DNA of 22,786 nucleotides from Oligoflexales bacterium (GTDB taxonomy: Bacteria; Bdellovibrionota_B; Oligoflexia; Oligoflexales; Bog-1112), in NCBI GenBank assembly GCA_045105515.1, contig JBGCDR010000155.1:1-22786 (forward strand). Reading direction: 5' to 3'. Positions 1,275 through 20,982 of this stretch are shown piece after piece (the stretch's first letter is position 1; every line of letters starts with the position of its first letter). Position numbers and translations under genes: made by a program. The notes beneath the pieces were generated by a model that worked only from the letters and a program-made list of their open reading frames with translations, had not been told where the DNA came from and ran no database searches.

Positions 1275-1879
1275 CCTCTTCCTCCTTTAGTCTTGGATAA
1301 TGTAAATGAATACTATCTAAATCCCTTGTGGGAGAGAGATCTTTTTTGGATTTGCTACTTACCTTATGTTGAAGAGCACATCCCTTAAAAAACTGAACTC
1401 TATGCTTATTAAACAGCAAGCATTGTGTTGCCGCGTATTCCATATCTTGCGTTCTAATATCCTTTAGTTTCATACATGCAAGCATTCCTTGAACAGCTCG
1501 TAAGCTTGCCAGGGGGCGATTTGAGCTAAACATCTTATGTATAAGTTCCGACATCTTAGGCCCTATAGACTGAGCTTTTGCTTTGGCTTTTGTTAGGTCA
1601 AATTGGGTTTGTTGGATTTTTTCTTCTGGGTAGTGACCAGGAGATATTGATTTTTTTCCCTTGCCCGATAGCTTCTGATGAACTGCTAAACTCTCAGAAC
1701 TATCATCGAAAACCTCTACGAGGTCTTTGCTAATCCTCACGTTAACTACATTGCCAATATGCTTATGTGGTATAGAGTAAAAGTTATGGTTTACTTGGAT
1801 CGTCGAATCTGGATGGACCTTTGCTTTCTTCCAAGTTTTTATGACATACCTGCAACTAGGCAACGGTAAAAGTTTAGGC
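1204..1879 (-). pseudogene. istA: IS21 transposase IstA, C-terminal remnant
   Basis: KLLPLP...KAKVHPDSTIQVNHNFYSIPH is typical of the IstA C-terminal region. The frame stays open up to the IS junction at 1880, the DDE core is missing, and the ORF overlaps istB. Confidence 0.88.
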
Positions 1880-3092: not shown

Positions 3093-3723
3093 GGCTCGTC
3101 AAGAAAAGATGACTTTAGCCGGATGTATGGCGGCGCACATCAGACGTGGGTTTGTTAAAGCAGAAAAAGCTTTGAAGAAGGCTAACCCAAAAGCAAAGAC
3201 TAAAACGTCTATACCTTTAGATTTGATAGGTGCCCTGTACAAGGTAGAAAGAGAAAGCATTGGTAAGACATATGAAGAAAGACTTAAAAAACGCCAAGCC
3301 GAATCCGTTCCTTTAATGAAACAGCTTCATAGTTGGTTAATGGCAGAAAAGCCTAAGACGCTGCCAAAATCCTTGATTGGCAAGGCGATTCGTTATGCTC
3401 TGGATCAATGGGACAAAATGCAGCATTTTTTACAAGATCCCGATGTGCCACTGGACAACAATAGATCCGAGAGAGCTATAAGACCATTTGTAATTGGTAG
3501 GTCCAACTGGATTTTCTCAAACTCCTGTGCAGGAGCGGAAGCAAGTGCCACCCTGTATTCTCTGATAGAATCAGCGAAAGCAAATGGCTTAGACCCTTTC
3601 AATTACCTTTGCGTAGTTTTCAAAGAGCTATGCAAGGCTTCAAGTTTACATGACTATGAAGGCTTGCTGCCTTACAATATTCGAACTTACTTCGATATCA
3701 AGCCACTTATAAATCCCAAATAG
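3093..3723 (+). pseudogene. tnpC: IS66 transposase TnpC, C-terminal remnant
   Basis: GCMAAHIRRGF, LPKSLIGKAIRYAL, DNNRSERAIRPFVIGRSNWIFS, YSLIESAKANGLDP. The N-terminal part is missing, and the first ORF codons (3064-3092) belong to the neighbouring IS. Confidence 0.9.
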
Positions 3724-7727: not shown

Positions 7728-8645
7728 ATGTTTTTGATCCCCAAATATAGTAAATTAGTCATTGTTACTATCATATTGATTTTTAGTCATTTTGTTTATG
7801 CGATGTCTGCTAATAACGATAAATTGGAATTATTGAAAATTACTCCTGAAGTTCGTGAATTTATCAGAACTATGGTCATAGAAAATGTAGGCAGTGAAGA
7901 CTTTCTCAGATCTACTCTTAGTCAAGCTAGGGTGGACCAAAGAATAATAACTATGATGGATAAGGCTTTTCCTCAAATACCTTACCCCGAATACAGAAGA
8001 AAATTTTTAAATCCTCAGTTGATTGAAAACGGATTTTTATTTTATAAGAAACATTCAAAACTTCTTGAACATTCCTATAACCAGTATGGTGTTGATCCCT
8101 TTATTGTTGTTGCGATAATGGGCATCGAATCAAATTACGGGGATAATCAGGGGCAACATGGTGCACTAAATAGTTTGGCTACTCTAGCGTTTCATTATCC
8201 GCGACGTTCTAAGTTTTTCAAAAATGAACTGAAAGCTTTTTTAGCTCTTTGCAGTGAAAATAATTTAGATCCTTTCATTGTAAAATCATCATTTGCTGGT
8301 GCATTAGGGGCACCTCAATTTATGCCTTCTAGCTACTTAGGATACGCCCGAACCTTCGAAACTAGAAAAAACGCAGATCTGTTTTTAAATCGAGGAGATG
8401 GTATAGCTAGTATTTCGAATTATTTATCCACTTTTGGCTGGGCAGAAAAAGATATGCGGTTTGGAAATAAAAAATCCATCGGAAATCAGAAAATAAAATA
8501 TGAAAAAGTGTGTATATCTGATACTGAACATAACTTACAAAAAAATAACTATAGAGTGTTGCTCCGGTATAACAATAGTCACAACTATGTAAAGGTTGTT
8601 TTTGAATTAGCAAGAAAAGTTGCGAGTCTTGCAGATAAAAAATGA
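7728..8645 (+). CDS. mltB: Lytic murein transglycosylase B (SLT_2 / family 3)
   Basis: Signal peptide-like N-terminus; YGVDPFIVVAIMGIESNYG (catalytic Glu), YPRRSKFFKNEL, SSFAGALGAPQFMPSSY, YNNSHNY. Confidence 0.93.
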   Translation: MFLIPKYSKLVIVTIILIFSHFVYAMSANNDKLELLKITPEVREFIRTMVIENVGSEDFLRSTLSQARVDQRIITMMDKAFPQIPYPEYRRKFLNPQLIENGFLFYKKHSKLLEHSYNQYGVDPFIVVAIMGIESNYGDNQGQHGALNSLATLAFHYPRRSKFFKNELKAFLALCSENNLDPFIVKSSFAGALGAPQFMPSSYLGYARTFETRKNADLFLNRGDGIASISNYLSTFGWAEKDMRFGNKKSIGNQKIKYEKVCISDTEHNLQKNNYRVLLRYNNSHNYVKVVFELARKVASLADKK

Positions 8646-8674: not shown

Positions 8675-8935
8675 ATGGAAAGACTGCCATCAAAAATAAG
8701 ATATATGAAACCTTTATACTGGGGAGCTGGTGTTTGGATTTTAGCTTTTGCGGCGGATCAACTCAGCATCCACTCTATCGACAGTTTCAGTATAGGTCCT
8801 TTTTATGAAAAAGATGATTGCTTAGATGTGCTAAAAAAAATAGAAAAATTGAAAGAAAAAAGTTTATATGTAAAATACTCAACCAATGGGAAAATCAATT
8901 GGGGCCAAGGTAAACATTGGGACCTTAAAATATAA
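8675..8935 (+). CDS. Small hypothetical protein (86 aa)
   Basis: ORF with an AAAGGGA RBS that fills the gap between mltB and the next gene, with a short hydrophobic stretch. No family recognised. Confidence 0.45.
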   Translation: MERLPSKIRYMKPLYWGAGVWILAFAADQLSIHSIDSFSIGPFYEKDDCLDVLKKIEKLKEKSLYVKYSTNGKINWGQGKHWDLKI

Positions 8936-8951
8936 CTTAGAGAGATATTAT

Positions 8952-9959
8952 ATGAAAAATATTCCAAAAACATGGGAATGCGGCGCAGATCATTTTCAAT
9001 CAGTATTAACCAATGAATGGTATAAAGTAGTTTCTAGTTTGTTTTCAGAGGTAACTTGTACAACGATAGACTTTTTTAGAAAGGAAGGTCTTAGTCCGGT
9101 GTTACTACCTATTACTTGTCCTTCAATTTCGAGTCCTATGGGGCTCGGTAGTGACAGTTTACCTGTTGAAATTGAGTTGCATAATGAAAAAATCTATTTA
9201 GCGGATTCTATGCAATTTCATTTGGAATATCTTTTAAGGATTCAATCCCAAGGGGTATTCTACATTATGCCTACATTCAGGGGAGAAGATCCAGATGCAA
9301 CCCATTTGAATCAGTTTTTTCATGCAGAGGCTGAAATCCAGGGTGGATTCTTTGATGTTATGCAACTAGTTAATAAATACGTATTACAATTAACTAAAAA
9401 TATTAACTCGAAGCTTTCATGTGATCTAAATAAGGTAGGAATCAACACTGAACATTTAGATTTATTTATTAATTTGAATGGAAAAGTACCTGTTGTTGCG
9501 TTTGAAGATGTTTTTAATGACTTCAAAGACTCTGAATATATTGAATATATTAACTCTGATACTCCGATCATTACGAGAAAAGGTGAGCTTAAATTAATTG
9601 AAATTTTTAAAGGCCCAGTTTGGTTAAGTCATCCAAGGCACAACTCTGTACCATTCTACCAAGGTTGGAGTGAAGATAGAAAATCTGCTTTATCAGCCGA
9701 CCTTCTCCTAGGTTTAGGTGAAGTAGTTGGATGTGGAGAGCGTCACACTAGCTATCAAGATACTTATGAATCTTTAAAATCACATGGAGTTAACCATGAA
9801 GAATATGATTGGTACTTACGCTTAAAGAGAGAGTTTCCTTTGAAAACAGCTGGATTTGGTCTCGGAATAGAAAGGTTTCTCGCTTGGGTTTTAAAACATA
9901 ATGATATTCGAGACCTGGCGCTTTTCAACCGTTTAAAGGGAATTAAGTCAGCACCATAA
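8952..9959 (+). CDS. AsnRS/AspRS catalytic-domain paralog lacking the anticodon-binding domain (archaeal AsnA / AsnRS2-like ligase)
   Basis: YLADSMQFHLE, motif 2 FRGEDPDATHLNQFFHAEAE, ADLL..LGEVVGCGER, YDWY, motif 3 TAGFGLGIERFLAW. No N-terminal OB-fold. The ATG at 8952 is preferred over 8886. Confidence 0.88.
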   Translation: MKNIPKTWECGADHFQSVLTNEWYKVVSSLFSEVTCTTIDFFRKEGLSPVLLPITCPSISSPMGLGSDSLPVEIELHNEKIYLADSMQFHLEYLLRIQSQGVFYIMPTFRGEDPDATHLNQFFHAEAEIQGGFFDVMQLVNKYVLQLTKNINSKLSCDLNKVGINTEHLDLFINLNGKVPVVAFEDVFNDFKDSEYIEYINSDTPIITRKGELKLIEIFKGPVWLSHPRHNSVPFYQGWSEDRKSALSADLLLGLGEVVGCGERHTSYQDTYESLKSHGVNHEEYDWYLRLKREFPLKTAGFGLGIERFLAWVLKHNDIRDLALFNRLKGIKSAP

Positions 9960-9993
9960 TTTTTCTGAAAAAAACTCATAAATGGAGAACTAA

Positions 9994-10995
9994 ATGAATT
10001 CTGTATATGTACCACAATTAACTAAAAATGATATTGTTCATGTTGTTGCACCATCTAGGAGCATGTCAATAATTTCAAAGCAAGTACAAGATACAGCGAC
10101 GCAAAGATTAAATTCTTTCGGTCTTAATGTTTCTTTTGGAAAATATATTAATAATTCAAATAATTTTTGTACAACCACGGTCGAAGAAAGAGTAGAAGAT
10201 CTTCATTCTGCTTTTCTTGATCCAAATATTAAAGGCGTATTTTCTGTTATAGGTGGATTTTATAGTAACCATTTATTGGACTATATCGATTTTGATATAT
10301 TGAAATCAAATCCTAAAGTATTCTGTGGTTATTCAGATATCACAATCCTAGTAAATGCTATTTACAGAAAATGCGGATATATAACTTACTATGGACCTCA
10401 CTATTCAACATTAGGTATGGTTCAAGGTATCGATTATACTTTGAATAGCTTGAAAGATACTCTCTTTAGTTTTTCAGATAACGGTCTGACAATTGAGCCA
10501 TCCAGGAAATGGAGCGATGATCTTTGGTTTTTAGATCAAGATAAACGAGTGTTTATTGAAAATAGTGGACCAGTTGTTTTGAATAAAGGTATTGCAAAAG
10601 GACGTGCGATAGGAGGTAATCTTTTTGCTTTTGATTCGTTGAGAGGGACAGAATATATGCCAGATCTTGAAGATTCTATTCTATTTCTCGAATGTGATGA
10701 TACTCATGGGGACCTCACTCCTGCTCTATTTGATAAAATTATTTACTCAATTTTGCAGCATAAGGGTGCTAAAGGTATCAAAGGAATAGTCCTTGGTCGT
10801 TTTCAGAATTCCTGTAAATTTGATGAGTTAACACTATGTGACATTCTAAAAGCGAAAAATATGTTATCAGGCATCCCAATTGTTTATAATATGAGTTTTG
10901 GTCATACTACACCACAGTTCACTATTCCTATTGGTGCTGATACGATTTTAGATACTCAAGACTCTGAAAATGTTTGCTTACAATTCAAAAGGTAA
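9994..10995 (+). CDS. S66 family peptidase (LD-carboxypeptidase / MccF-like)
   Basis: VAPSRS, IGGFYSN, GYSDIT (Ser), GGNL, LFLE (Glu), FGHTTP (His). No signal peptide. Confidence 0.93.
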   Translation: MNSVYVPQLTKNDIVHVVAPSRSMSIISKQVQDTATQRLNSFGLNVSFGKYINNSNNFCTTTVEERVEDLHSAFLDPNIKGVFSVIGGFYSNHLLDYIDFDILKSNPKVFCGYSDITILVNAIYRKCGYITYYGPHYSTLGMVQGIDYTLNSLKDTLFSFSDNGLTIEPSRKWSDDLWFLDQDKRVFIENSGPVVLNKGIAKGRAIGGNLFAFDSLRGTEYMPDLEDSILFLECDDTHGDLTPALFDKIIYSILQHKGAKGIKGIVLGRFQNSCKFDELTLCDILKAKNMLSGIPIVYNMSFGHTTPQFTIPIGADTILDTQDSENVCLQFKR

Positions 10996-11001
10996 TTTTA
11001 T

Positions 11002-12294
11002 ATGTTAAGTCTTGAAAAAATTAAGGATATTTGTTTAAAAAGAGGATTTTTTTATAAACAAAATTGCGGTTCTTTAGAAGGGATTTACGAGTTAGGTCCC
11101 CTAGGTGTTATTTTAAAAAATAATATTATTTCCTCATGGAAACATAGTCTGCTTTCAAGAGACTATGAGATATACTCAATGGAAACTAGTAATCTGACTC
11201 CTCTTAAAGTTTGGGAAGTATCTCAGCATACAAAAAATTTTCATGACCCCGTAACTACCTGTACTCGTTGTAGCTTATCTTTCAGAACAGACAAATGTGA
11301 ACATGACCTAAAAGATAGTAAAGTAATTTATTACTGTCCAAAATGTGGCAATGAGAGTCATTCTATTGTTTCAAAATCATCTTTGCTGTTTGAAACAAAT
11401 GTTAACTTGAATGCAAAAAAAGAAAGTAAATTTATTTTACGGCCTGAAGGCTCACAACTAGTATATTTGCAGTACAAAAATTTAATAGATTCTATGAATG
11501 CTAAAATTCCTTTCGGAGTGTCTCATATAGGCCGATCTTTTCGAAACGAGACATTCGATGCGAACTCTTTTATTTTTCGTTCACTGGAATTTGACCAGTT
11601 AGATGTTCAATTTTTTGTTTCTGAATCCGAGGCCATAAAATATTTGGATATATGGACCAACAGACGGTTAGAATGGTATAAAAAGCTTTCCAATAATCCT
11701 GCAAACTATATAGCGAAGACTATTCCTCAGGATGATAGGAGCCATTATTCAAGCCAAACCAACGACATTTTATTTAATTTCCCATGGGGTAAAGATGAAA
11801 TTGAAGGAGTTGCTTGCAGAAATGATCTCCTAGGACTAAAAAATTTTTTCCCTCATGCTTTTGAGGGGGTTCGACAAGAAGACTTACCTTTTGTCATCGA
11901 GCCAAGTGCTGGATTGCAGCGAATGATATTATCCTTTCTTTTTGATGCTGCGGTAGAAAGTGAGTCAACCAACCAAGTCAATCTGAATATTCATCATGAT
12001 TTAGTCCCATATCATGTTTCTATAAACATCAACGGGAGCATGCCTCTTGTAAATTTATGGGAAGATTTGCATCAAAAAAACAAGAATATTCGAATCAATA
12101 AAACTTGTGAGTCTGAAAACAAAATATTTGAACTAATAAATAATCAAATTGGGACATTGTGGACGATTAGTAAAGATATGTCTGGATATGGGTATATTCT
12201 AAAGCACAGAGACAAAGATCTGCATCATTTTGACACATTAGAGTCATTGTCTAATCGATTAGCACTAGATTTTGAAAAATTACAGGATATATAA
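11002..12294 (+). CDS. Divergent glycyl-tRNA synthetase (alpha2 type) paralog with a degenerate anticodon-binding domain
   Basis: CLKRGF, YELGPLG, CxxC...CxxC, LRPEGSQ, IGRSFRNE, FIFRSLEFDQLD, FPWGKDEIEG, PFVIEPSAGLQR. The C-terminal domain lacks [15 protein letters not shown]. Confidence 0.88.
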   Translation: MLSLEKIKDICLKRGFFYKQNCGSLEGIYELGPLGVILKNNIISSWKHSLLSRDYEIYSMETSNLTPLKVWEVSQHTKNFHDPVTTCTRCSLSFRTDKCEHDLKDSKVIYYCPKCGNESHSIVSKSSLLFETNVNLNAKKESKFILRPEGSQLVYLQYKNLIDSMNAKIPFGVSHIGRSFRNETFDANSFIFRSLEFDQLDVQFFVSESEAIKYLDIWTNRRLEWYKKLSNNPANYIAKTIPQDDRSHYSSQTNDILFNFPWGKDEIEGVACRNDLLGLKNFFPHAFEGVRQEDLPFVIEPSAGLQRMILSFLFDAAVESESTNQVNLNIHHDLVPYHVSININGSMPLVNLWEDLHQKNKNIRINKTCESENKIFELINNQIGTLWTISKDMSGYGYILKHRDKDLHHFDTLESLSNRLALDFEKLQDI

Positions 12295-12298
12295 AGAT

Positions 12299-13582
12299 AT
12301 GAATACAAAAAAACCAGATAAAAAAGAGTTTATTAAGAACATTCTTTTCTGTAAGTGGGATCATGTTTTTCTAAAAACAGCTCTTGAAAGTAATCATGTA
12401 TGCCATTTGGTTCTCGACAAATATGATGCAAAAAGTCATGATTTCAATAAGGAGTTAGCTGATAAGTGTGCATCGTTTATTACAGTTAGTTCTTTCGATT
12501 CTATTGAAGAACTTTCAGCGGTAGCTGGGCATTTTATATCTTCGGAGATAAAAATTGATTTCGTTGTAAGCAATGGAGAGTATGGCCATTATGGAGCTGG
12601 TTTACTGGGATCTATTTTTGAGGTTCCAAATATTAATATTCATTCTGTAACCTCTGTCAGAGATAAGATATTGATGAAGAAAATGGCTGTTGATGGGGGG
12701 TTGCGTGCAGCATCTTATACCTCCATACCAGATATATCTGATATCTCAAACTTTAAAAGTAAATTGAGACATTTATCTTATCCTCTTGTACTAAAGCCTT
12801 CTAATGGTGTGGGTACAAGGTATACTTATATACTTAAAAATGACCAGGACTTAAAAGTCGCAGCTGAAGAAATAAGTAGTAACCTATGTCCTCCCCTTTA
12901 TTCTAGAAGTTTTATCATCGAAGAATTCATACCTGGTGAGGAATATAATATCGATGCCGTTTGGTTAAATGGTAAACCTGTTCTTTTTTCGATCGCAAAA
13001 TATTTTTCTCCGGTAATTCAGTACAAGAATAGCACTGTAGGATTGAGAATTTTAAACAAAGAAGATCATGAAGAACTCTATGAAGAATTATATAGCATGA
13101 ATATAAAAGCTAATAAAATTTTCAATATAAGAAATGGTTTAACACATATGCAAGTCTTAAAAGAACCTGGTAAGCCAGCTGTTTTTACAGAGATTGCCAC
13201 TCGTCATTGCGGAGGGTATGGTTGTGAAGCGATTGAGAAAAAGTGGGGTATAGATAATCGAGAAGCTTTTATTAGAATTCTACTTGGATGTGAGAAATCG
13301 GACTTGGCATTTAATGAAACACCTCATAAACACGTAGGATATTTTAACGTATCTCCGGAAAATCCTGGTGTAGTCGTCAATTCGCCTAATCCTGAAGAAA
13401 TAAAAAAGTTCAATGGAGTATTAGAAGTAAAACAGTGTCTTTTCGATGGAGAAGATTATGCGAATGACTATGGATGCAATTGGACGATGCTGGTACTTGT
13501 TGGAACGGAATCGATTGATAAGTTCCATGAAATTGTCAACACCGTGAACGAAAAATTTAAATATCAAACGGTTGGTAACTGA
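12299..13582 (+). CDS. ATP-grasp ligase (L-amino acid ligase-like), copy 1
   Basis: RDKILMK, YPLVLKPSNGVGT, FIIEEFIPGEE, HMQV, TEIATRHCGG. The ATG at 12299 is preferred. Confidence 0.9.
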   Translation: MNTKKPDKKEFIKNILFCKWDHVFLKTALESNHVCHLVLDKYDAKSHDFNKELADKCASFITVSSFDSIEELSAVAGHFISSEIKIDFVVSNGEYGHYGAGLLGSIFEVPNINIHSVTSVRDKILMKKMAVDGGLRAASYTSIPDISDISNFKSKLRHLSYPLVLKPSNGVGTRYTYILKNDQDLKVAAEEISSNLCPPLYSRSFIIEEFIPGEEYNIDAVWLNGKPVLFSIAKYFSPVIQYKNSTVGLRILNKEDHEELYEELYSMNIKANKIFNIRNGLTHMQVLKEPGKPAVFTEIATRHCGGYGCEAIEKKWGIDNREAFIRILLGCEKSDLAFNETPHKHVGYFNVSPENPGVVVNSPNPEEIKKFNGVLEVKQCLFDGEDYANDYGCNWTMLVLVGTESIDKFHEIVNTVNEKFKYQTVGN

Positions 13583-13583
13583 C

Positions 13584-14858
13584 GTGAATATTTTATTTTG
13601 TAAATGGGATAAGTCTTATCTAGAACTAATGCTAGCTCAAGGATTAAAAGTGTGGCAAGTATTAGATGATTTTGACAAGAATCTTAACAATCTTGATGCT
13701 GATTTGCTTGCTAAGTGTGAAAATATATTCTATGTCAGATCTTTTGACTCGATTGAGGAGATCGCTTCCATTGCCTCTTCACTAATTTCTGAAAATGTGA
13801 AAATTGAACATGTTGTTAGTAATGGTGAATATTCTATTTACGGATCAGCAGTTTTAAAGTCGATTCTTGGGCTTGAAGGTAATGCTGTGTTGAAAGGGCT
13901 ATGCTACCGTGATAAAAGAGCGATGAAACAGAAACTAAGAAAAAATCAGATTAGAACTGCCCGTTATGTATCCGTTTCAAATATTCATGATATTCATGAT
14001 CTATATGATAAAGCCCTCCAGATTGGTTTCCCAGTGGTTGTAAAACCGGCAAATGGGGTTGGAACACGGCTAACAGCTGTACTAAGGAATGCTAATGAAC
14101 TTAATGAATTCCACCAAAGGGTAATTGCTGAAATTAAACCTCCCATTTTTTCGTCACAATTTATTGTCGAAGAATATATTAAAGGTCAAGAATTCCATGT
14201 AGACGGGGTCTGGGCAGAGGGAAGAAATATTTGTTTTTCAGCAGGCAGGTACCATGCTCCATGCGTAGAGTTTAAGGAAAAGTTTTATGGATCTATGTTG
14301 CTAGATGAAAAGAATGATGAACACTGTCTTAAGGAACTTTTTGAGTTAAATAAGAATGTTAATCGTGCCCTTGGTATTTGTGATGGGCCTACTCATCTCG
14401 AAGTCTTTCTAGATTGTAACGGTGAATTTGTTGTATCGGAGATGGCAACAAGAATTGGTGGTGGGTTTATTATGGAAGCTAATCTGGAAAAAGATAATAC
14501 CTGTTTCAGATCCAATCATGTTAAAGTTCTGGTGAATCCAAGGAACTTTTCAAAATCTGAGCCACCACCTTCCCAATTGAAGGTGAGGTATTTCGGTTTT
14601 ATTAACTTGACACCAAAAGAAGAAGGCGTAATTACATCTATACCAAGCATCGATTCTTTAAAGAGTCATCCCGGAATTCTTCGTTTCCAGTTGCGTGCGA
14701 ATATTGGCGACTCTTTTAAGCACAGTCATGGTGGGAATTGGATACTTATGGTAGTTATCGCAGCACCTTCTGAAGAAGAATATCAGATGCTATGTAAAGA
14801 GATCATTGAAAAATTTATAATTCAAACGGTCCCTTTTATTTCTAAGGTAACTAATTAA
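13584..14858 (+). CDS. ATP-grasp ligase (L-amino acid ligase-like), copy 2
   Basis: [53 protein letters not shown]. The start is either GTG 13584 or TTG 13572. Confidence 0.9.
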
Positions 14859-14875
14859 TTTTAACATTTTATGAC

Positions 14876-16186
14876 ATGAGAAACCCTATGTTAGACAAGA
14901 TGAAAATGATTACGGCACTCTGTAAAAAACGTGGATTCGTATTTCAAAGCTCTGAAATTTATGGTGGCCTCTCAGGTGCTTGGGATTATGGGCCTTTGGG
15001 ATCTGAACTTAAGGCTAATATTAAAAAATTGTGGTGGGAGCACATGACCTACCGGCAAGATATTGTAGGAATAGATTCGGCAATTTTAATGAACCCAGAG
15101 GTCTGGAATACTTCTGGTCATGTCAAAAATTTTAGCGATCCTATGGTTGATTGCAAAATTTGTAAGCATCGCTTTAGAGCTGATACGATCGACTTAAACG
15201 CTCCTTGTCCAAATTGCCAATCTGAAAATAGCTTTACTGAGCCGCGTGATTTCAATCTACTATTTGAAACCTCTTTAGGATCAGTAAAAGATCACCAAAG
15301 TAAAGTTTATCTTCGACCTGAAACTGCTCAAGGAATTTTTGTAAATTTTATTAATGTACAGAAATCAACCCGAAAAAAAATTCCTTTTGGAATAGCTCAA
15401 ATAGGAAAATCCTTTCGAAACGAGATAACTCTTGAAAATTTTATCTTTCGAACTCGCGAATTTGAACAAATGGAAATGCAATATTTTGTTGAACCAGGCT
15501 CTCAATCAGCCCATATAGCCCAATGGAAAGAAGTAAGGATAAACTGGCTAAAAAGTTTGGGTTTTAATCAAGATAATTTGCGTTTTGTCGACCACGACAA
15601 GCTAGCGCACTATGCAGATGAAGCAGTAGATATTGAATATAATTTCCCAAAATTTGGTTGGAGTGAACTTGAAGGAATACATTCTCGAACAGATTTTGAC
15701 ATTAAGGGTCATATGGATGCTTCAGGCAAGAACTTACAGTATGTAGATCCTATTAATGGAAAGAAGTTCTGCCCATATGTGGTAGAAACTGCCATAGGGT
15801 GTGACAGGTTGTTTTTAGCTTTGTTATGTGAGGCTTTAGTAACAGATTCCGAAGATGATGATTTAGATAGGGCTTTATTGAAGCTAGATCCAAAAATTGC
15901 ACCTATAAAAGCAGCTATTTTACCCCTGCAAAATAAACCTGCTATCACTGAATTAGCTATAAAAACTTTTGATGATCTCAGAAAAAGGTTTAAAACAGAT
16001 TATGACACCTCTGGATCTATAGGTAAAAGGTATCGTAGGCAAGATGAAATAGGAACTCCTTATTGTGTGACTTTTGATTTCGATACTATAGAAGATAAAA
16101 AAGTTACGGTAAGGAATAGAGACACTGCTCAGCAATCTCGCGTCGAATTGTCTCATCTACAAAAGTATCTAGAGGATAGGATCTAA
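14876..16186 (+). CDS. glyQS: Glycine--tRNA ligase (alpha2 dimeric type), intact
   Basis: [95 protein letters not shown]. Confidence 0.96.
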
Positions 16187-16192
16187 CTTTCA

Positions 16193-17434
16193 ATGAAAAG
16201 TCAGGAAAAAATTTTTATTCTGTTGCTTCTTCAAGCGTTAGCATTGACAGGGTCCTCTTTGACAGGCTTTGCTCTTCCGTTATTGCTTTTTAAAGGTTCT
16301 GATCAGATTTCTGGCCTTGGATTACTATATTTTTTTCAAATATGGCCTGGCTTTTTAGTTAGCTTTCTAGCAGGATATATTACAGACCGATTCTCAAGGA
16401 GATGGGTGTCAATTATTTCATTGATAGCATATCTTTTGAATTTAGCCTGTCTTGGATTCTTTCATCATTTTAATAGTTTGGATAGATTAATCATCTATTT
16501 TTTTACTATAAATCTTTCCATAATTAATGCTTTTCAAGCATTATCTCTCTGTACCCTTATAAGTGAAAATGTGCGAAATGAAACTAGAGTTCTCGTTAAT
16601 ATTTTACTATCTCTCCGTAACACTGTCCCACGGCTATTGGCTCCAGCATTGTCCGGATTTCTAGTAGCACAAAATGAGATCAGTACAATTGTAGAAATTG
16701 ATTTCATAATTCATATCTTGTTTCTTTTTGTAGTTTTTGTTCTGTCTCATAATTTTAATAGTAGTAAAGATAATCAAATAAAATTGTTAGATTATAAAAA
16801 AGTGCTTTCGTTTATTGGTAAACAAAAAACTATGCAAAAGACTTTATTAAGTCTTTTGCATACTAATGCTACCACTTCAGTTTTTGGAGTTTTTATTATT
16901 CCTATTGCACTGAATTTTATGAACGAACACCAAATAGGTTTTAATTTGTCTATGGGTGGGATTGGGAGTGTTGTGGGAGCTTGCTGTTTTCAACGAAACT
17001 TTTTCAAACTTAATTTGAACCATATTTTGTTTTTTAGTCATTTAATTCAAGGTTTTTCTTTATTTTTTTTGGTAATTTTTTCATTTTATGATTACTTTGG
17101 CTTATTTTTATTTTTCTACTTTTTTACAGTTCCTATTCAAAATGGGCATAGCTATAGTGTTTGGCAAGAAAGTACCAATCCTTCGCTTTATGGACGCTTA
17201 TTTGCGTCTAAGGGAATGATTCTTCAAGCTAGTAGTATTATAGTTTTTTTTCTTATAGGCTACATTGGAGATTGGATTCTAATTCCAACTACAAGTAGAA
17301 TCCTTTCCCCAGATAAAGGTTATCTTGGGTTGTGTTTCTTTATATCGGCCTTAGGAATTACACATATTATTGCAGCATCTAGAATTTTTCTCCGCTCACG
17401 GCTAATATCAGAGTTTCAATATGAAAAGGTATAA
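16193..17434 (+). CDS. MFS transporter (DHA3/MefA-like exporter)
   Basis: About 12 hydrophobic segments, motif A GYITDRFSRR, and WQESTNPSLYGRLFA. Confidence 0.9.
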   Translation: MKSQEKIFILLLLQALALTGSSLTGFALPLLLFKGSDQISGLGLLYFFQIWPGFLVSFLAGYITDRFSRRWVSIISLIAYLLNLACLGFFHHFNSLDRLIIYFFTINLSIINAFQALSLCTLISENVRNETRVLVNILLSLRNTVPRLLAPALSGFLVAQNEISTIVEIDFIIHILFLFVVFVLSHNFNSSKDNQIKLLDYKKVLSFIGKQKTMQKTLLSLLHTNATTSVFGVFIIPIALNFMNEHQIGFNLSMGGIGSVVGACCFQRNFFKLNLNHILFFSHLIQGFSLFFLVIFSFYDYFGLFLFFYFFTVPIQNGHSYSVWQESTNPSLYGRLFASKGMILQASSIIVFFLIGYIGDWILIPTTSRILSPDKGYLGLCFFISALGITHIIAASRIFLRSRLISEFQYEKV

Positions 17435-18392
17435 AAATTTTTCGTTGGACCTAGGTCGATGGAATCATTCAACACTAGAAAATTTGATGGAACATTGTCA
17501 AGTTAACAAAAAAACTGCAAATGAGCGGATTGCATTTTGGATGGAGGAATTGATATCTATTCCTTTCGCCTTCGAATCGCAAAGAATGTGGCCCGAAAAA
17601 GGTCACATTCGTGTGGATTTAGAAACAATGGACTGTATGACTCTAGTATATTATGTTTTAGCCCTTTCTCGAAGTAGAGATATTAATGAATTTTTATCGC
17701 AGATTTGTTCTTTTCGTTATCATGGAGATGGATTAATAGATAGTGACCCAGAGAAGGGAAATATATTTAATTTTGCTTCTGAAGCATTTCTGAAAAATGC
17801 TATATCTAGGAAAATATTTATTGATTTAACTAGTGATTTAGTACCTAAAAAATATTTAGGTATTTTCTCAGCAAATCTAAAAAAAATTAGGCGCGCAAAG
17901 CTAATAGATATAAACCAGAATTTTATTAGCCCCATAACACAAGGTCGAGTTAGAAGTGAATTTATCGTAAAAGATGGATTTCCATACGTTTTTAAAGACA
18001 AAATTAAATCTGGGGATCTAATTTTATTTGGTAAGAAAAATAAAAATGATGACGAAGAACTTCCGATGCTGATAGCTCATCTAGGTTTTGTATATAGACC
18101 CCACGATGAAACTAATGGAAAAATAGGTTTGTATCACTCCACTAGGCATTTCCATTGGAATCCAAACGGAAATATTGACTCTCGACCACGTTTTACAGGT
18201 TTTTTTTATGATACAGAAAGAAAAAAAGAGCAAATAGGAACAGGTGTTGCAGGTGTTTTTGCTGGTGAGCATACTAAAACCATTGTAAATCCCAATTCAA
18301 CATGTTATGGGATGAATCAGGATGAAATAAGATCTATATTTGACTACGCCTCTTTTTCATTTGATGGTTTTAAGATTTTAAGACCTTTATAA
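17421..18392 (+). CDS. DUF1460 / NlpC-P60-like cysteine hydrolase (AmiA-like amidase fold), no signal peptide
   Basis: LETMDCMTLVYYVLALSRS (Cys), FRY, IKSGDLI, IAHLGF (His), LYHST, GFKILRP. Confidence 0.78.
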   Translation: MKRYKNFSLDLGRWNHSTLENLMEHCQVNKKTANERIAFWMEELISIPFAFESQRMWPEKGHIRVDLETMDCMTLVYYVLALSRSRDINEFLSQICSFRYHGDGLIDSDPEKGNIFNFASEAFLKNAISRKIFIDLTSDLVPKKYLGIFSANLKKIRRAKLIDINQNFISPITQGRVRSEFIVKDGFPYVFKDKIKSGDLILFGKKNKNDDEELPMLIAHLGFVYRPHDETNGKIGLYHSTRHFHWNPNGNIDSRPRFTGFFYDTERKKEQIGTGVAGVFAGEHTKTIVNPNSTCYGMNQDEIRSIFDYASFSFDGFKILRPL

Positions 18393-18457
18393 CCCTATAA
18401 AAAATAAAGATATTTGTTAATTAAAAAATAAATTTAAAATAGACATGGAAACACAAA

Positions 18458-19747
18458 ATGTTAAAATCATTGGATCTAGTAGCATCTGAAAACAAACAAA
18501 GCCCGTTGGTTCGAGCACTTCATTTAAGTAGTTACGGTGAAAAATATTATTTAAGCAACGAAATATTTGAAGATAAAAAAGACAGTCCTTATCCTGTAGA
18601 TGAATTTTTTCCCAAATTATTAATTGCAGGAAATAAATTGATTGCAGGCTTATTTAATGCCAATTGGTGTGATCCTCGACCATTATCGGGTACACACGCC
18701 ATGAACTGCTTATTGGCGGGTTTTGGGGACTTTGGTGATAATATTACAATAACTCCGGAGGTTAATAGTGGACATTTTGCTACTAGCTATATGGCTACTC
18801 GTCTAGGATTAAATAGTTCTTTTTCTTTGTATGACAAAGAAAAATATACTATTGATCCAATAAAGACAGCAGAGGTGATCAATACAAATAAGCCTTCGAT
18901 TGTAACATTAGATGCTAGCCATGTTTTATTTCCTCATCCATTAAAAGAGTTAAAGTCATATTTGAACTATAATCCTCTTATTGCATATGATGCCAGTCAC
19001 ACCATGGGCTTAATAGTGCATAAGATTTTTCAAGATCCATTTGAAGATGGTGCAGATATTATTCATGGAGGAACTCATAAGACATTTCCTGGTCCTCAAA
19101 AAGCAATATTCCTTGGAAAAAATGAAGAAATTCGTCAAAGAGTAGACGGTGTAATTTTTCCTAGATTTAGTTCTAATTTTCATTTACACCACATTATCAG
19201 CCTTTATGGTGCGGCATTGGAAGCTTTAGTATTTGGTAAATCATATGCAAACCAAGTTATCAAAAATGCTCAACATTTAGGTAAATGTATGCATGAAGCA
19301 GGACTTCCTGTAATGGCTGAGGATCATGGATTCACCAAATCTCATCAATTATGGTTAAATATTTCTGCTGATAAAGTTCCTCTACTAAATGAAATGGGAA
19401 TTCGAGCAACTGTTTTTGTCATTCCTGGAACTGATGGGCAACAAAAGGGGATTCGTCTCGGAACTCAAGCCATAACTAGGATGGGCTTCCAAGAGAAGGA
19501 TATGCAGGCCGTTGCAGGTTTTATTAAACAAGGTTTGATGGATAACAAGAACAGTAAACTTCTAAGGAATGAGGTTAGTGATTTTGTTAAAAAATTTGAA
19601 GGTATCTCTTTTGCTTTCAAAGATATTAAAGCAATTGTAGACGCCCATCCAGTTGGGGGTTTGTTGGCAGAGCATATGGAAGAAGGTGGATTAGACAAAA
19701 TATTTCAACACTTGGTCTGTGCTCCAACATTTTCAAACCAAAATTAA
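18458..19747 (+). CDS. SHMT-fold PLP enzyme, L-threonine transaldolase-like (LipK/ObiH/AbmH type)
   Basis: LDLVASEN, RPLSGTHAM, YDASHTMGL, GGTHKTFPGPQKA (canonical SHMT has TTTHKTLRGPRGG), TKSHQLW, GIRLGTQAITRMG. Confidence 0.85.
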   Translation: MLKSLDLVASENKQSPLVRALHLSSYGEKYYLSNEIFEDKKDSPYPVDEFFPKLLIAGNKLIAGLFNANWCDPRPLSGTHAMNCLLAGFGDFGDNITITPEVNSGHFATSYMATRLGLNSSFSLYDKEKYTIDPIKTAEVINTNKPSIVTLDASHVLFPHPLKELKSYLNYNPLIAYDASHTMGLIVHKIFQDPFEDGADIIHGGTHKTFPGPQKAIFLGKNEEIRQRVDGVIFPRFSSNFHLHHIISLYGAALEALVFGKSYANQVIKNAQHLGKCMHEAGLPVMAEDHGFTKSHQLWLNISADKVPLLNEMGIRATVFVIPGTDGQQKGIRLGTQAITRMGFQEKDMQAVAGFIKQGLMDNKNSKLLRNEVSDFVKKFEGISFAFKDIKAIVDAHPVGGLLAEHMEEGGLDKIFQHLVCAPTFSNQN

Positions 19748-20055
19748 TGGCGGTTAGTAGCTTTTTGTAAACGAGTTATTGAAATCTTTTTTGATACAAC
19801 CCAGTTTTGCCGGTAAACTTAAGCATAATGGCCCAGGTTATATAAGGCTCTAATTATATGCATTAAATGTTGCTATTACAGCTCTGATCACTTCCTGACC
19901 ATTGCTGTCCATTTTGTCCTTTTTGTCTATATAAAAGTTTGGAACAAGAAGCCACGAAAACGAGCAGAAATTTATATCGACTTCGAAAATTTTTAAGCCA
20001 CAATCCTCTTAAATTCATAAAAATACACTAGTGTTACGTAAAATAGAAAATCACC

Positions 20056-20184
20056 TTATAATAGACCTTTAAAATAAGTATCCTTTTCCTTTTTGCTTAG
20101 TCCATTAAAATCCTCAGAAACACCTGGAGGTAAGCACCTCCAAATCATGGATGGTGAGTTCCTATTTCGGTAGGTCTCCTGTGA
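20056..20184 (-). pseudogene. Possible 3' remnant of a gene cut by IS66
   Basis: A 42-codon frame (SQETYRNRNSPSMIWRCLPPGVSEDFNGLSKKEKDTYFKGLL*) stays open right up to the IS66-like end at 20185. Confidence 0.3.
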
Positions 20185-20202
20185 GTAAGCGCTTGTTCAT
20201 GA
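20185..20202 (+). repeat. 18-bp remnant of a second IS66 inverted repeat, in tandem with the IS66 left IR
   Basis: GTAAGCGCTTGTTCATGA is immediately followed by GTAAGCGCTCGTTTATGACCGT. Confidence 0.8.
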
Positions 20203-20287
20203 GTAAGCGCTCGTTTATGACCGTGTTTTAATCGTCAAAAAAAGCATTTATAACCGTATTGTTGTGTTTCATTTGAAAGGGTTATAA

Positions 20288-20635
20288 ATGGCTAAGAAGA
20301 AAAGTTTAAGTCGAGATATCTGGGAGATGCATATTTGGAAGTGGAGCAATAGTTCCCTCTCGATTACTAATTACTGCACGGAAAACTCTCTGTCGCGGCA
20401 GTCATTTTATAAGTGGAAAGGAATTTTCCACGATAAGACCCCAGAGAAAAGGGTGATTGAGCATCCTAAGAAGGAGGAATTTATTCCTGTAGAAGTTGCC
20501 CCCTCCAAAACTTTATCAAATAGCGGTCAAATTAAATTAAGCTTTACGTCAAATGACGGTCAGATATTCAGCCTAGAATCTTCGGACATGAATATGATGA
20601 TGAAATTATGCCAATTTCTCCAGGGTGCAAGATGA
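20288..20635 (+). CDS. tnpA: IS66 accessory protein TnpA
   Basis: W..HI..W..SSLSITNYC...LS..SFYKWK and FIPVEV; first ORF of the IS66. Confidence 0.9.
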   Translation: MAKKKSLSRDIWEMHIWKWSNSSLSITNYCTENSLSRQSFYKWKGIFHDKTPEKRVIEHPKKEEFIPVEVAPSKTLSNSGQIKLSFTSNDGQIFSLESSDMNMMMKLCQFLQGAR

Positions 20636-20982
20636 GATCCGTAGAAAGTTTTGAAAAGATATTTCTATATCCTAAGGCCGTTGATATGAGGAAACAAATA
20701 AATGGCTTGGCTCATATAGTGGAGTCGTCAGCTCTCAAACTTTTCAGCCCTAGCTTGTTTCTTTTTTCCAACCGTCACAGGAAGCTTGTTAAAGCCCTTT
20801 ACTGGGCTGACACCGGATTTTGTCTTTGGATGATGAAACTGGAAGAAAATCGTTTTCCTTGGCCCAAAAGCTCAGATAAACACCTTATTCTTTCTCCCGA
20901 GCAATTTAATTGGCTTATAAAAGGCGTGGATTTTAGCAAAATTAAGCCGCATCAAACCTTGCAATATGAGCGTTTTTCATAG
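20632..20982 (+). CDS. tnpB: IS66 accessory protein TnpB
   Basis: VDMRKQINGL, LFLFSNR, KALYWADTGFCLWMMKLE, FPWP. ATGA overlap with tnpA. Confidence 0.93.
   Translation: MRSVESFEKIFLYPKAVDMRKQINGLAHIVESSALKLFSPSLFLFSNRHRKLVKALYWADTGFCLWMMKLEENRFPWPKSSDKHLILSPEQFNWLIKGVDFSKIKPHQTLQYERFS

Follow-up and report, generated by a model that had tools for sequence, protein, structure and literature searches.

Gene content and context of the operon

The window analysed here is the whole stretch of 22,786 nucleotides that makes up one contig of an uncultured bacterium of a predatory lineage (Oligoflexales bacterium), and it carries a nine-gene operon at positions 8952–19747 of the + strand (Table 1). 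An earlier note on this DNA had described nine co-oriented, tightly packed genes, and this layout was confirmed: all of them lie on the + strand at or near where the note had placed them, separated from first to last by +34, +6, +4, −11, +17, +6, −14, and +65 bp (range −14 to +65). The frame of the first gene is already open from 8886, and an alternative TTG start of the first ATP-grasp gene is open at 12272.

Table 1. Genes of the operon, with their positions in the window and the principal model match of each product
Product	Position	Strand	Match
AgnA-like class IIb aaRS catalytic core, without anticodon-binding domain	8952..9959	+	PF00152, 4.3e-34
MccF-type S66 serine peptidase	9994..10995	+	Peptidase_S66 (N and C domains)
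Highly diverged full-length GlyRS paralogue	11002..12294	+	NF003211, 252.6 bits (cut-off 312)
L-amino-acid-ligase-type ATP-grasp enzyme 1	12299..13582	+	ATP-grasp_4, 1.4e-14
L-amino-acid-ligase-type ATP-grasp enzyme 2	13572..14858	+	ATP-grasp_4, 2.7e-15
Intact short-form GlyRS	14876..16186	+	NF003211, 613.5 bits (cut-off 312)
MFS transporter	16193..17434	+	MFS_1, 2.6e-17
AmiA-like (DUF1460) amidase	17421..18392	+	PF07313, 3.5e-9
SHMT-fold PLP enzyme, archaeal-SHMT/threonine-transaldolase group	18458..19747	+	FTase and SHMT models

The genes had also been assigned to an IS-bounded island. IS genes do flank both sides: the left flank carries IS21, an IS66 fragment, and a group II intron, and the right flank carries IS66 tnpA/B/C. 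The two IS66 transposases, however, are only 40% identical, and a composite transposon was therefore rejected. Because the window is the entire contig and terminates in IS sequence, its chromosomal context is not visible, and because the contig holds mobile elements and the cluster and nothing else, its assignment to the genome depends on binning and on an ordinary composition. Positions 3000 to ~20300 are matched with 0 differences by per-run public assemblies from three runs of one study, possibly the source of the window itself; two of the runs give one contig, and the third gives two that overlap. The cluster is accessory: the AgnA-like gene was found in 2/131 genomes sampled from the phylum and not in a same-genus genome that is 94% complete.

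Homology to agrocin 84 and recurrence of the gene set

Agrocin 84 is a biocontrol agent against crown gall, and the analogy with it drawn in the earlier note proved to be one of direct homology. The AgnA-like protein is 40.9% identical, over 97% of its length (E=5e-61), to the agnA product ("Agrocin84-synthetase") of pAgK84 from Rhizobium rhizogenes K84, and the S66 peptidase shares 27.8% identity with AgnC5 ("MccF-like") of the same plasmid, where agnA and the AgnC5 gene flank agnB2, encoding the resistant LeuRS. The cluster, described earlier as undescribed, is thus of a type that is not wholly so. Aligned with AsnRS (1x54), the AgnA-like protein retains motif 2 (FRxE) and motif 3 (GFGLGxER), and its 246.7 bits against the NCBIfam archaeal-type asparagine synthetase A lie under the cut-off of 322. 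Its family comprises 123 representatives (E≤1e-30), and in 20 hand-picked long matches such domains are fused with GNAT (Acetyltransf_3), HIT, or Asparaginase_2. The peptidase matches the MccF-like 4e5s (E=3e-90) and E. coli MccF (3tla, 1.9e-31), against ~1e-16 for LdcA-type entries, which places it in the MccF clade; its GYSD, LE.DD, and GHT stretches align. Excerpts of PMC8323819 describe AgnA as the proposed phosphoramide-bond enzyme. The same excerpts give a ~1000-fold lower sensitivity for AgnB2, name MccF, MccE2, and MccH as microcin C immunities and aspartyl- and isoasparaginyl-adenylates as MccF substrates, and report that stand-alone MccF homologues are widespread and give microcin C resistance.

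Besides these two homologues, both clusters contain a second full-length aaRS, an exporter, and a mobile context, although the aaRS is LeuRS in agrocin 84 and GlyRS in the window, and the exporter is AgnG in the former and an MFS pump in the latter. The window adds two L-amino-acid ligases, the diverged GlyRS, the AmiA-like amidase, and the SHMT-fold enzyme, and together with the MFS pump these additions suggest that the carrier in its product is probably a peptide rather than an opine mimic. With the window proteins as queries (E≤1e-3), no homologue of AgnB1, AgnC1–C4, C6–C7, D, E, or F was found, and the window holds no AgnB1-type methyltransferase, AgnC1 homologue, or nucleoside-tailoring gene; an AgnB1-type methyltransferase (32–36%) and a NUDIX gene are shared by agrocin 84 with the related metagenome cassettes instead. 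No link emerged in hhalign comparisons among the diverged GlyRS, AgnC1, and two unknown families from the cassettes (probability ≤3.7%).

The two ATP-grasp enzymes are 33% identical to one another. The nearest solved structure of enzyme 1 is the L-amino acid ligase 4wd3 (2.9e-20), and its relatives comprise one at 67% identity and others at 32% or less; enzyme 2 matches 4wd3 first (3.8e-35), followed by BL00235 and BacD, and scores 26.3 bits against LAL_C2, under the cut-off of 29.4. The L-amino acid ligases of the rhizocticin and bacilysin pathways (4wd3 and BacD, 3vmm), which are known to couple an amino acid to a warhead amino acid, belong to the same ATP-grasp structural family, but they show low identity to the window enzymes, whose scores against the NCBIfam BacD and DdaF models fall far under the cut-offs. 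The MFS transporter has TIGR00900 and EntS-like matches under their cut-offs. The AmiA-like protein is placed by the Atlas in PF07313 clusters (0.94), and the Atlas model resembles AmiA-like (TM 0.65/0.84) and NlpC/P60 proteins, so the modelled fold appears NlpC/P60-like; its single-sequence prediction reached a pLDDT of 34.8, and a word search gave no homologue. The SHMT-fold enzyme scores 225.9 bits against the FTase model (cut-off 650) and 209.5 against the SHMT model (cut-off 335), and among solved structures it matches Methanocaldococcus jannaschii SHMT (8.2e-52) and ObiH (7k34, 2.8e-50) equally well. It has the SHMT fold in common with the ObiH/ObaG, FTase, and LipK transaldolases, its PLP-Lys, Asp, His, and Arg positions align with those of ObiH, and, like ObiH, it has no stretch matching the SHMT "YAEG-PG-R-Y-G"; transaldolases are, however, not separable from SHMTs by sequence, according to an excerpt of PMC10495429. 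The cluster gene is an accessory copy, the canonical glyA lying on another contig (C82; 541 bits, versus 65 for the cluster enzyme).

Conserved synteny was also found elsewhere, in agreement with the earlier view of these genes as a unit. The AgnA-like gene adjoins an S66 gene in 30 of 60 metagenome loci, four of which also contain GlyRS (L068, L070, L085, and L090), and the first three of these carry two full GlyRSs each (572–624 bits). Other cassettes with this gene pair have two GluRS copies (L062 and L064) or ThrRS (L066 and L103), and a Xenorhabdus bovienii megaplasmid has a like arrangement with LeuRS, a class IIa-core protein, and an MFS gene. ATP-grasp, AgnA-like, and S66 genes occur together in 14/38 loci, all 14 from Actinomycetota, while AgnA-like, S66, and methyltransferase genes form a recurrent unit in metagenome cassettes. 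An aaRS lies within ±6 kb in 10/60 loci, where a rough estimate of chance is ~10% or more per locus; such proximity alone is not rare by chance, and the weight lies solely with the duplications, with recurrence by cassette type, and with the signature described below.

The GlyRS genes and their substitutions

The GlyRS at 14876, read earlier as a resistance gene, is not the sole GlyRS of this genome. A long-form housekeeping copy, on contig C433, shares 94% identity with the GlyRS of the same-genus relative, nests among relatives, and shows 0 deviations across 98 conserved columns, while the cluster copy is of a foreign short-form lineage, falling in a separate clade outside that of the host and its relatives. 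Extra GlyRS genes were seen in this genome only, among the matches listed for 131 genomes sampled from the phylum (G000 included). The other copy in the cluster, called degenerate earlier, is divergent (Table 1) but not truncated: it has 430 aa, aligns end to end with GlyRS, and contains remnants of the anticodon-binding domain. Pfam recognises its core alone, and it is 35% identical to the cluster GlyRS. It retains RPE, FRNE, the motif 3 Arg, and IGT/RD of the anticodon domain, and has 34 changes at the 98 columns (≥95% conserved), E200D and E202Q among them, with a branch length of ~3. No orthologue above 37% identity was found among 5.8e9 proteins, and selection on this gene is therefore not measurable; it could be decaying.

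E202Q occurs in 9/9 cassette-linked GlyRSs, and A269H and P305S/T in 8/8 of the intact ones, the cluster GlyRS having E202Q, A269H, and P305T. In a reference set of just 69 GlyRSs, 59 of them retrieved using the diverged paralogue as query, position 202 is E in 69/69, position 269 is A in 66 and S in 3, and position 305 is P in 69/69. The cluster GlyRS groups with the metagenome cassette GlyRSs (the 96* set), and the signature may be a lineage trait, given that one clade for all eight was not rejected (AU p=0.434). The cassette GlyRSs on metagenome contigs could also be the only GlyRSs of their organisms.

A putative glycyl-adenylate mimic and its alternatives

Taken together, these results support the earlier interpretation of the cluster, and we consider the chances slightly better than even that the operon was acquired horizontally and encodes both the biosynthesis of, and immunity to, an aminoacyl-nucleotide antibiotic of the agrocin-84/microcin-C type aimed at glycyl-tRNA synthetase. 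With the same degree of confidence, we take the product to be a glycyl-adenylate mimic of that type, extended by the two ligases and exported by the MFS pump, with MccF-like hydrolysis and a resistant GlyRS as immunity. The AgnA-like enzyme is proposed as the warhead synthase: its class II core would use ATP to link AMP, through an N-acyl phosphoramidate bond, to an amide nitrogen on a unit derived from glycine, giving a non-hydrolysable mimic. The diverged GlyRS, proposed as a biosynthetic enzyme that activates or transfers glycyl, would supply or install the glycyl part via adenylation or from Gly-tRNA, and retro-aldol or transaldol chemistry of the SHMT-fold enzyme might yield glycine or a beta-hydroxy analogue. 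The two ligases would then extend the free amine by one or two amino acids, so that victims would take up the warhead in the guise of a peptide, and the MFS transporter is the proposed exporter. For self-protection, the S66 peptidase is proposed to cleave the aminoacyl-N bond of the aminoacyl-nucleotide and would thereby cut unmasked warhead, and the intact cluster GlyRS, proposed as inhibitor-resistant and possibly also a supplier of Gly-tRNA, would maintain tRNA-Gly charging; the AmiA-like amidase is a candidate immunity or maturation hydrolase.

Such a cluster would share with microcin C (mcc) the MccF-type S66 immunity and export by an MFS protein, and would follow the same logic of masking an aminoacyl-adenylate mimic with a peptide, but the aaRS-core enzyme would replace MccB, and any peptide part would come from the ATP-grasp ligases. 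No ThiF/MccB-type adenylyltransferase domain was detected among window ORFs of at least 80 aa, and neither a precursor-peptide gene nor a GNAT (MccE) gene was identified in the window. If correct, this reading describes a small Trojan-horse antibiotic related to agrocin 84 that inhibits the enzyme charging tRNA with glycine; to our knowledge, GlyRS is the target of no known natural antibiotic.

The main alternative, which we regard as possible but rather doubtful, is that the GlyRS pair is biosynthetic and not protective, the intact enzyme making Gly-tRNA and the diverged one transferring glycine to a scaffold, with another target such as AspRS, that of microcin C. Its models are AcmD and AcmF in ascamycin and SbzA in SB-203208. 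Excerpts of PMC12945691 describe for ascamycin (acm, Streptomyces sp. 80H647) an additional AlaRS of canonical type (AcmD), a transferase that resembles AlaRS but has diverged onto a branch of its own (AcmF), and the hydrolase AcmE, a pattern matched in the window by an intact and a strongly divergent GlyRS accompanied by hydrolases. Also in its favour are the aspartyl- and isoasparaginyl-adenylates accepted by MccF enzymes in the excerpts of PMC8323819, the AlaRS-core-like protein of eight metagenome cassettes (1riq, 1.4e-6; Atlas clusters with PF01411 in 17–22% of members), and an Oligoflexia MAG locus (L035) in which a full class IIb aaRS accompanies a related ATP-grasp enzyme. However, the window differs from ascamycin in having GlyRSs instead of AlaRSs, no sulfamate or nucleoside genes, and S66 and AmiA-like hydrolases in place of alpha/beta-fold ones, and whereas AcmF lost its ATP-binding residues, the divergent copy here has lost neither its full length nor the ATP-site arginines of motifs 2 and 3. 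AcmD, moreover, both supplies aminoacyl-tRNA and resists the product, according to the excerpts of PMC12945691, and a biosynthetic role is therefore compatible with GlyRS as the target. No extra AspRS was found in the genome, in which the PF00152 search returned one AspRS, one LysRS-like protein, and the AgnA-like protein, and inhibitor pressure accounts more readily than plain Gly-tRNA supply for the three shared substitutions at near-invariant positions of the intact cassette GlyRSs.

It is improbable that the operon is an island for resistance or detoxification that makes no product of its own, in which a resistant GlyRS, the MccF-type hydrolase, the amidase, and efflux would act against aminoacyl-nucleotide antibiotics of neighbours and the ligases would be unrelated. 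The frequency of resistance-conferring stand-alone MccF homologues (PMC8323819, excerpts), the mobile setting with IS elements on each side, and a window devoid of methyltransferase and nucleoside-tailoring genes are consistent with it, but the AgnA homologue has a synthetic step assigned in its sole characterised relative (same excerpts), the same tight operon also encodes a PLP enzyme and three more ATP-dependent enzymes of ligase type, and AgnA-like, S66, and methyltransferase genes recur together. Least probable is a chance gathering on a mobile element of primary-metabolism genes without a common product (an archaeal-type asparagine synthetase, a murein LD-carboxypeptidase, spare GlyRSs, a spare SHMT, and a cell-wall amidase), as the top NCBIfam names (asparagine synthetase A, LdcA, and SHMT), the PGAP naming of plasmid homologues as "asparagine synthetase A", and the failure of the PF00152 search to find AsnRS in this genome might suggest, but those NCBIfam scores are all under their cut-offs, the peptidase is MccF-type rather than LdcA-type, canonical glyA and GlyRS are at other sites of the genome, and the gene set recurs across phyla with its aaRS genes swapped.

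Gene content and setting of the candidate cluster

The best-supported reading of the operon at 8952-19747 is that it would encode an aminoacyl-nucleotide antibiotic cluster of the agrocin 84 and microcin C type, aimed at glycyl-tRNA synthetase (GlyRS). The AgnA-like protein would be the warhead synthase, the diverged GlyRS and the SHMT-fold enzyme would supply or install a glycyl (or beta-hydroxy) unit, the two L-amino-acid ligases would attach a peptide mask, the MFS transporter would export the product, and immunity would come from the S66 peptidase together with the variant GlyRS. Each of the nine genes listed in the earlier note was borne out by Pfam and NCBIfam (see table), with successive gaps of +34, +6, +4, -11, +17, +6, -14, and +65 bp. 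Because neither promoter-like sites (62 against 54.2 ± 6.8 expected) nor terminator-like sites (5 against 7.5) were enriched, the operon limits were drawn from gene spacing alone.

Features of the contig, with their family matches
Feature	Coordinates	Strand	Match or remark
IS21-family genes	537-3058	opposite	abut the IS66 fragment
IS66 transposase fragment	3064-3723		
Group II intron	3847-4114		RF02005, 87.8 bits; directly after the IS66 fragment
RT ORF	4273-5691		
ORFs of 300 and 169 aa	5806-7218	-	without Pfam/NCBIfam match
MltB-like lytic transglycosylase	7728-8645		228 bits, MltB cut-off 281
86-aa ORF	8675-8935		without family match; overlaps an upstream extension of the AgnA-like ORF
Promoter-like site	8849-8876		10/12
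AgnA-like protein (class IIb aaRS core without anticodon domain)	8952-9959	+	archaeal asparagine-synthetase-A model, 246.7 bits, cut-off 322 not reached
S66 peptidase	9994-10995	+	N and C domains both present
Diverged GlyRS-like protein	11002-12294	+	252.6 bits, below the NF003211 cut-off of 312
ATP-grasp enzymes (two)	12299-13582, 13572-14858	+	mutual identity 33%
Intact GlyRS	14876-16186	+	NF003211 (canonical dimeric GlyRS), 613.5 bits, above the curated cut-off of 312
MFS transporter	16193-17434	+	MFS_1, 2.6e-17
AmiA-like (DUF1460) protein	17421-18392	+	PF07313, 3.5e-9
SHMT-fold enzyme	18458-19747	+	top NCBIfam model fluorothreonine transaldolase, 225.9 bits, cut-off 650

For both ATP-grasp enzymes the best PDB match was the L-amino acid ligase 4wd3 (3.8e-35 and 2.9e-20), followed by BL00235 and BacD, and ATP-grasp_4 exceeded its cut-off in both, with LAL_C2 seen in the second only and below its cut-off (26.3 against 29.4). 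Both are predicted to be of the L-amino acid ligase type. The SHMT-fold enzyme can be regarded as an accessory copy, since the canonical glyA sits on another contig, C82 (541 bits, against 65 bits for the cluster enzyme). It matches an archaeal SHMT (8.2e-52) about as well as the threonine transaldolase ObiH (2.8e-50), and its catalytic H, D, K, and R align with those of ObiH, residues that are also common to SHMTs. The SHMT 'YAEG-PG-R-Y-G' segment, which we take to matter for folate chemistry, has no aligned counterpart in this enzyme or in ObiH. Transaldolases and SHMTs have been described as inseparable from sequence alone (PMC10495429). The AmiA-like protein was placed with PF07313 and an NlpC/P60-like fold by the Atlas; a word search returned no homologue, and its single-sequence AlphaFold model was unusable (pLDDT 34.8).

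The operon was described in the earlier note as lying in an IS-bounded island, and IS elements do occur on both sides: IS21 genes, an IS66 fragment, and a group II intron on the left, followed by two ORFs without family and the MltB-like gene, and IS66 tnpA/B/C on the right. A composite transposon was ruled out, however, because the two IS66 transposases share only 40% identity, and a long nucleotide repeat is absent within the window; the island is therefore IS-rich without being such an element. The left-hand elements form a nest of mobile DNA. Close upstream of the cluster, the MltB-like gene is possibly a truncated or divergent one, its match covering about the first 200 of about 290 profile positions (TIGR02282 1-201/290, SLT_2 4-204/292).

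The source assembly (6.29 Mb in 461 contigs, 90.9% complete, 4.8% contamination) contributes the window as one entire contig which carries mobile elements and the cluster only, so that its assignment to this genome depends on binning. Public per-run assemblies, all three from one study that is possibly the source of the window itself, match it from 3000 to about 20300 with zero differences. Two of these runs yield a single contig over this stretch, and the remaining run yields a pair that overlap; the right-hand IS66 has a depth of 2-4 times. In the sample of 131 phylum genomes, two yielded an AgnA-like gene, and none was found in the same-genus genome (94% complete); the cluster is accordingly accessory. 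Compositional foreignness was unsupported: the cluster has a GC content of 34.2%, the genome one of 38.3%, and the cluster's tetranucleotide correlation ranks at the 17th percentile among random 10.8-kb chunks, inside the range of the genome. A PF00152 search of this genome recovered AspRS, a LysRS-like gene, and the AgnA-like gene; AsnRS was not found in the 91%-complete assembly, which would fit tRNA-dependent asparagine formation.

Comparison with agrocin 84, microcin C, and ascamycin

In a tblastn search of plasmids, the AgnA-like protein matched agnA of pAgK84, annotated as 'Agrocin84-synthetase', with 40.9% identity over 328 aa (97% of its length, E=5e-61). After agnA, that plasmid carries a SAM methyltransferase gene and then the agrocin-resistant LeuRS gene agnB2. 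The same cluster includes agnC5, whose product, annotated as an 'MccF-like protein', shares 27.8% identity over 335 aa with the S66 peptidase of the window. The peptidase matched 4e5s at 3e-90 and E. coli MccF at 1.9e-31, against about 1e-16 for LdcA-type carboxypeptidases, and groups with MccF-type rather than LdcA-type enzymes. The window thus shares with the agrocin 84 cluster an AgnA-type core synthetase, an AgnC5-like S66 protein, and an extra full-length in-cluster synthetase. Compared with the housekeeping LeuRS, AgnB2 is less sensitive by a factor of about 1000 (PMC8323819), and its place would be taken here by the extra GlyRS, additional to the housekeeping copy and predicted to confer resistance. 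AgnA has been proposed to form the phosphoramide bond in agrocin 84, although its reaction is described as unproven and the pathway as unknown (PMC8323819).

What speaks against the agrocin-type reading is that a methyltransferase, an AgnC1 homologue, and a nucleoside-tailoring gene were not found in the window. The SAM-dependent AgnB1, C3, and C7 and the ProRS-like AgnC1 have no counterpart there: no methyltransferase domain occurs among its ORFs, and none of these four proteins gave a BLAST match. Comparison of AgnC1 with the diverged GlyRS by hhalign returned a probability of 0.2%, and AgnC1, two cassette families of about 380 aa, the GlyRS alignment, and the diverged GlyRS appeared unrelated to one another by the same method. 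With microcin C the likeness lies in the MccF-type immunity peptidase, the immunity enzymes of that system being MccF (S66), MccE2 (GNAT), and MccH (HIT) (PMC8323819). It differs in that no MccB-like ThiF-type adenylyltransferase was identified in the window (0 of 21 ORFs scanned, of 26 listed at ≥80 aa), nor, among these ORFs, an MccA-type precursor peptide with a terminal Asn.

Under the main rival reading the type of cluster is unchanged, but the GlyRS pair would be purely biosynthetic, as in ascamycin, where AcmD charges tRNA and the AlaRS-like AcmF moves alanine onto the nucleoside sulfamate (PMC12945691). The architecture of a canonical extra synthetase with a divergent paralogue of the same type is present in the window, but its diverged GlyRS retains the ATP-site arginines and AcmF does not. 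Since AcmD is also the ascamycin resistance enzyme (PMC12945691), the resistance and biosynthetic readings of the pair are not exclusive. An island for resistance only, to which the MccF-type peptidase and the variant GlyRS could belong, is less likely in an operon that also encodes an AgnA-like protein, two predicted ligases, and an SHMT-fold PLP enzyme. Also less likely is a chance gathering of primary-metabolism genes; GlyRS and SHMT do belong to primary metabolism, and the genome has its own copies of both on other contigs.

In the agrocin-type reading, the kind of cluster has one characterised example, agrocin 84, together with in-silico relatives carrying MetRS; actinobacterial agn-like clusters have an extra MetRS (PMC8323819). 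Three features are new here: the linked synthetase is GlyRS, the core is combined with L-amino-acid ligases, and the GlyRSs carry a three-residue signature. The earlier note's description of the cluster as undescribed therefore holds for the GlyRS link, for which no published precedent was found, but not for the cluster kind. Literature searches, which covered papers without their supplements, returned neither a natural product for which GlyRS serves as target or resistance gene nor a GlyRS-linked cluster, and a 2021 review of Trojan-horse aaRS inhibitors does not mention GlyRS (PMC8323819). The cluster is a strong genome-mining lead built wholly on sequence, and as a compact, nine-gene relative of agrocin 84 with a different synthetase it would offer a simpler system for studying the assembly of a stable adenylate mimic by an aaRS-core enzyme.

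The cluster GlyRSs and their residue signature

Whether the GlyRS at 14876 might be the only copy in the genome, a point raised in the earlier note, was settled by a second, long-form GlyRS on contig C433, which is 94% identical to the same-genus copy and nests among relatives in a tree of 37 GlyRSs. In that tree the intact cluster GlyRS was placed in the short-form group, beyond two well-supported branches (99 and 100), and the diverged paralogue on a branch of length about 3. Three GlyRS genes were seen in this genome only, other genomes having one or none among the matches listed, when 60 relatives were searched with the diverged paralogue and 131 phylum genomes (this one included) with the intact copy.

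The references for the signature were 69 GlyRSs (10 from the host and its relatives, 59 database hits), a small and biased set in which 98 columns reach a conservation of 95% or more. Across these, the host copy shows 0 deviations, the cluster GlyRS 5, and the diverged paralogue 34. Position 202 is E in 69/69 references and Q in 9/9 cassette-linked sequences; position 269 is A in 66/69 and S in 3/69 references and H in 8/8 intact cassette-linked copies; and position 305 is P in 69/69 references and S or T in 8/8 intact copies. Position 305 lies inside the 'IEPS/IEPA' motif and position 202 two residues past the last Glu of 'EFEQME', stretches which, from Thermus GlyRS, we take to line the glycine/adenylate pocket. 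The window GlyRS, seven metagenome cassette GlyRSs, and a phytoplasma GlyRS form one supported set of nine (96; diverged copy omitted), and a single clade of the eight cassette GlyRSs was not rejected (AU p=0.434). The signature may be a lineage trait; it also provides a hypothesis on inhibitor resistance that can be tested by mutation.

The diverged paralogue retains RPE, FRNE, and the motif 3 Arg; E200D is among its changes, and 'EIYGG' and 'GKRYRRQDE' are lost. No orthologue above 37% identity was found in a protein database search. Because it has E202Q, F155Y, and F158Y in common with the metagenome cassette copies, it derives from the cassette lineage, strongly diverged since.

AgnA-like and S66 cassettes in other bacteria

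The earlier note had asked whether these genes co-occur elsewhere, and they do. An AgnA-seeded metagenome scan kept 80 loci, 60 of which have an AgnA-like gene at least 30% identical; S66 was adjacent in 34/80 by tblastn and in 30/60 by clustering, the latter a lower bound because many of the contigs are only 1-3 kb long. The other neighbours in the 60 loci were four families of SAM methyltransferases (13, 11, 7, and 4 loci), one cassette methyltransferase family being 32-36% identical to AgnB1, as well as a family of about 380 aa without assigned function (9), an AlaRS-core-like family (8), AMP-binding enzymes (5), RelA/SpoT (4), HD (4), NUDIX (3), PLP decarboxylases (3), and ATP-grasp (2). 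A single ATP-grasp protein retrieved no loci from the genome collection as a query, whereas an alignment-based scan of species genomes, followed by tblastn with the window proteins, gave 38 loci, mostly from Streptomyces. A full-length AgnA-like gene (40-45% identity) lay within 10 kb in 18 of them, S66 in 15, and both in 14, all Actinomycetota; tblastn matches to GlyRS, the SHMT-like enzyme, and the AmiA-like protein were found in none of the 38. Three of these loci have, by Pfam, MFS pumps and a variable set of B12-radical SAM, P450, APH, aminotransferase, methyltransferase, and GNAT genes.

Full-length synthetase genes of several specificities stand beside the core. GlyRS does so in four metagenome loci (L068, L070, L085, and L090, seen as contigs alone, so that a further host GlyRS would not be visible), the first three with two GlyRS genes each (572-624 bits); GluRS-type genes do so in four, two of which (L062 and L064) have two copies, and ThrRS in two. 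A synthetase lies near the core in 10/60 loci, against a rough chance estimate of at least 10% per locus (±6 kb), and since such proximity is not rare by chance we place weight on the duplicated copies, the recurrence by cassette type, and the signature.

We propose, tentatively and with some doubt, that the window belongs to a modular, target-swapping family of aaRS-inhibitor cassettes and encodes the first GlyRS-directed natural antibiotic with a ligase-built peptide carrier. The constant core would be the AgnA-like synthase and the MccF-type peptidase, usually with a methyltransferase; the cognate synthetase, often in two copies, would name the target, GlyRS here and LeuRS, GluRS, ThrRS, or MetRS elsewhere; and the immunity GlyRS would owe its resistance to E202Q, A269H, and P305S/T. 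With such a cassette grammar, the synthetase inside a cluster would allow its target to be predicted in many uncultured bacteria.

Several individual loci deserve mention. L062 (9950-14415), L064 (1120-4816), and L053 have S66, TauD, AMP-binding, a no-name ORF, and the AgnA-like gene, then two GluRS-type genes, and this cassette would be a candidate GluRS-directed sibling of the window cluster. On the megaplasmid of Xenorhabdus bovienii CS03 (12025-20675 of the record), an 'asparagine synthetase A' (AgnA-like), a methyltransferase, and an LD-carboxypeptidase (S66) are followed by a nucleoside phosphorylase, VOC, GloA, leuS, a class IIa-core 'aminoacyl-tRNA ligase-related protein', and MFS, which by gene content is a putative agrocin-like cluster in a cultured insect-pathogen symbiont; in a search of a very small database, the class IIa-core protein gave a weak match to AgnC1 (E=0.002, 85 aa). 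In Pantoea agglomerans plasmids (six records), a 427-aa GNAT-AgnA-like fusion adjoins an MFS transporter and a metallophosphoesterase, with no S66 or aaRS gene within 9 kb.

The AgnA-like family comprises 123 representative clusters at E≤1e-30. Among 20 hand-picked longer members, Pfam identified fusions to Asparaginase_2 (10), HIT (4), carnitine acyltransferase (4), GNAT (Acetyltransf_3; 1), PP-binding (1), and methyltransferase (1). Four proteins of about 1300-1570 aa (P0082, P0089, P0092, and P0110) combine carnitine acyltransferase and Asparaginase_2 with a C-terminal AgnA-like domain, P0089 also having HIT.

Two loci come from closer relatives of the host. A 7131-bp contig of an Oligoflexia MAG carries a radical SAM gene, a 610-aa ORF, a full-length class IIb aaRS with OB-fold, a MATE pump, and an ATP-grasp enzyme with 30% identity to its window counterpart; these genes could represent a separate ligase cluster, linked to an aaRS, within the host's class. 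The phylum sample yielded just one further AgnA-like gene (49% identity), in a genome of the host's order (G075, contig C302); its neighbours are two no-name ORFs, APH, a methyltransferase, a nucleotidyltransferase, a PqqD-like gene, and S66, with a sigma-54 two-component pair alongside.
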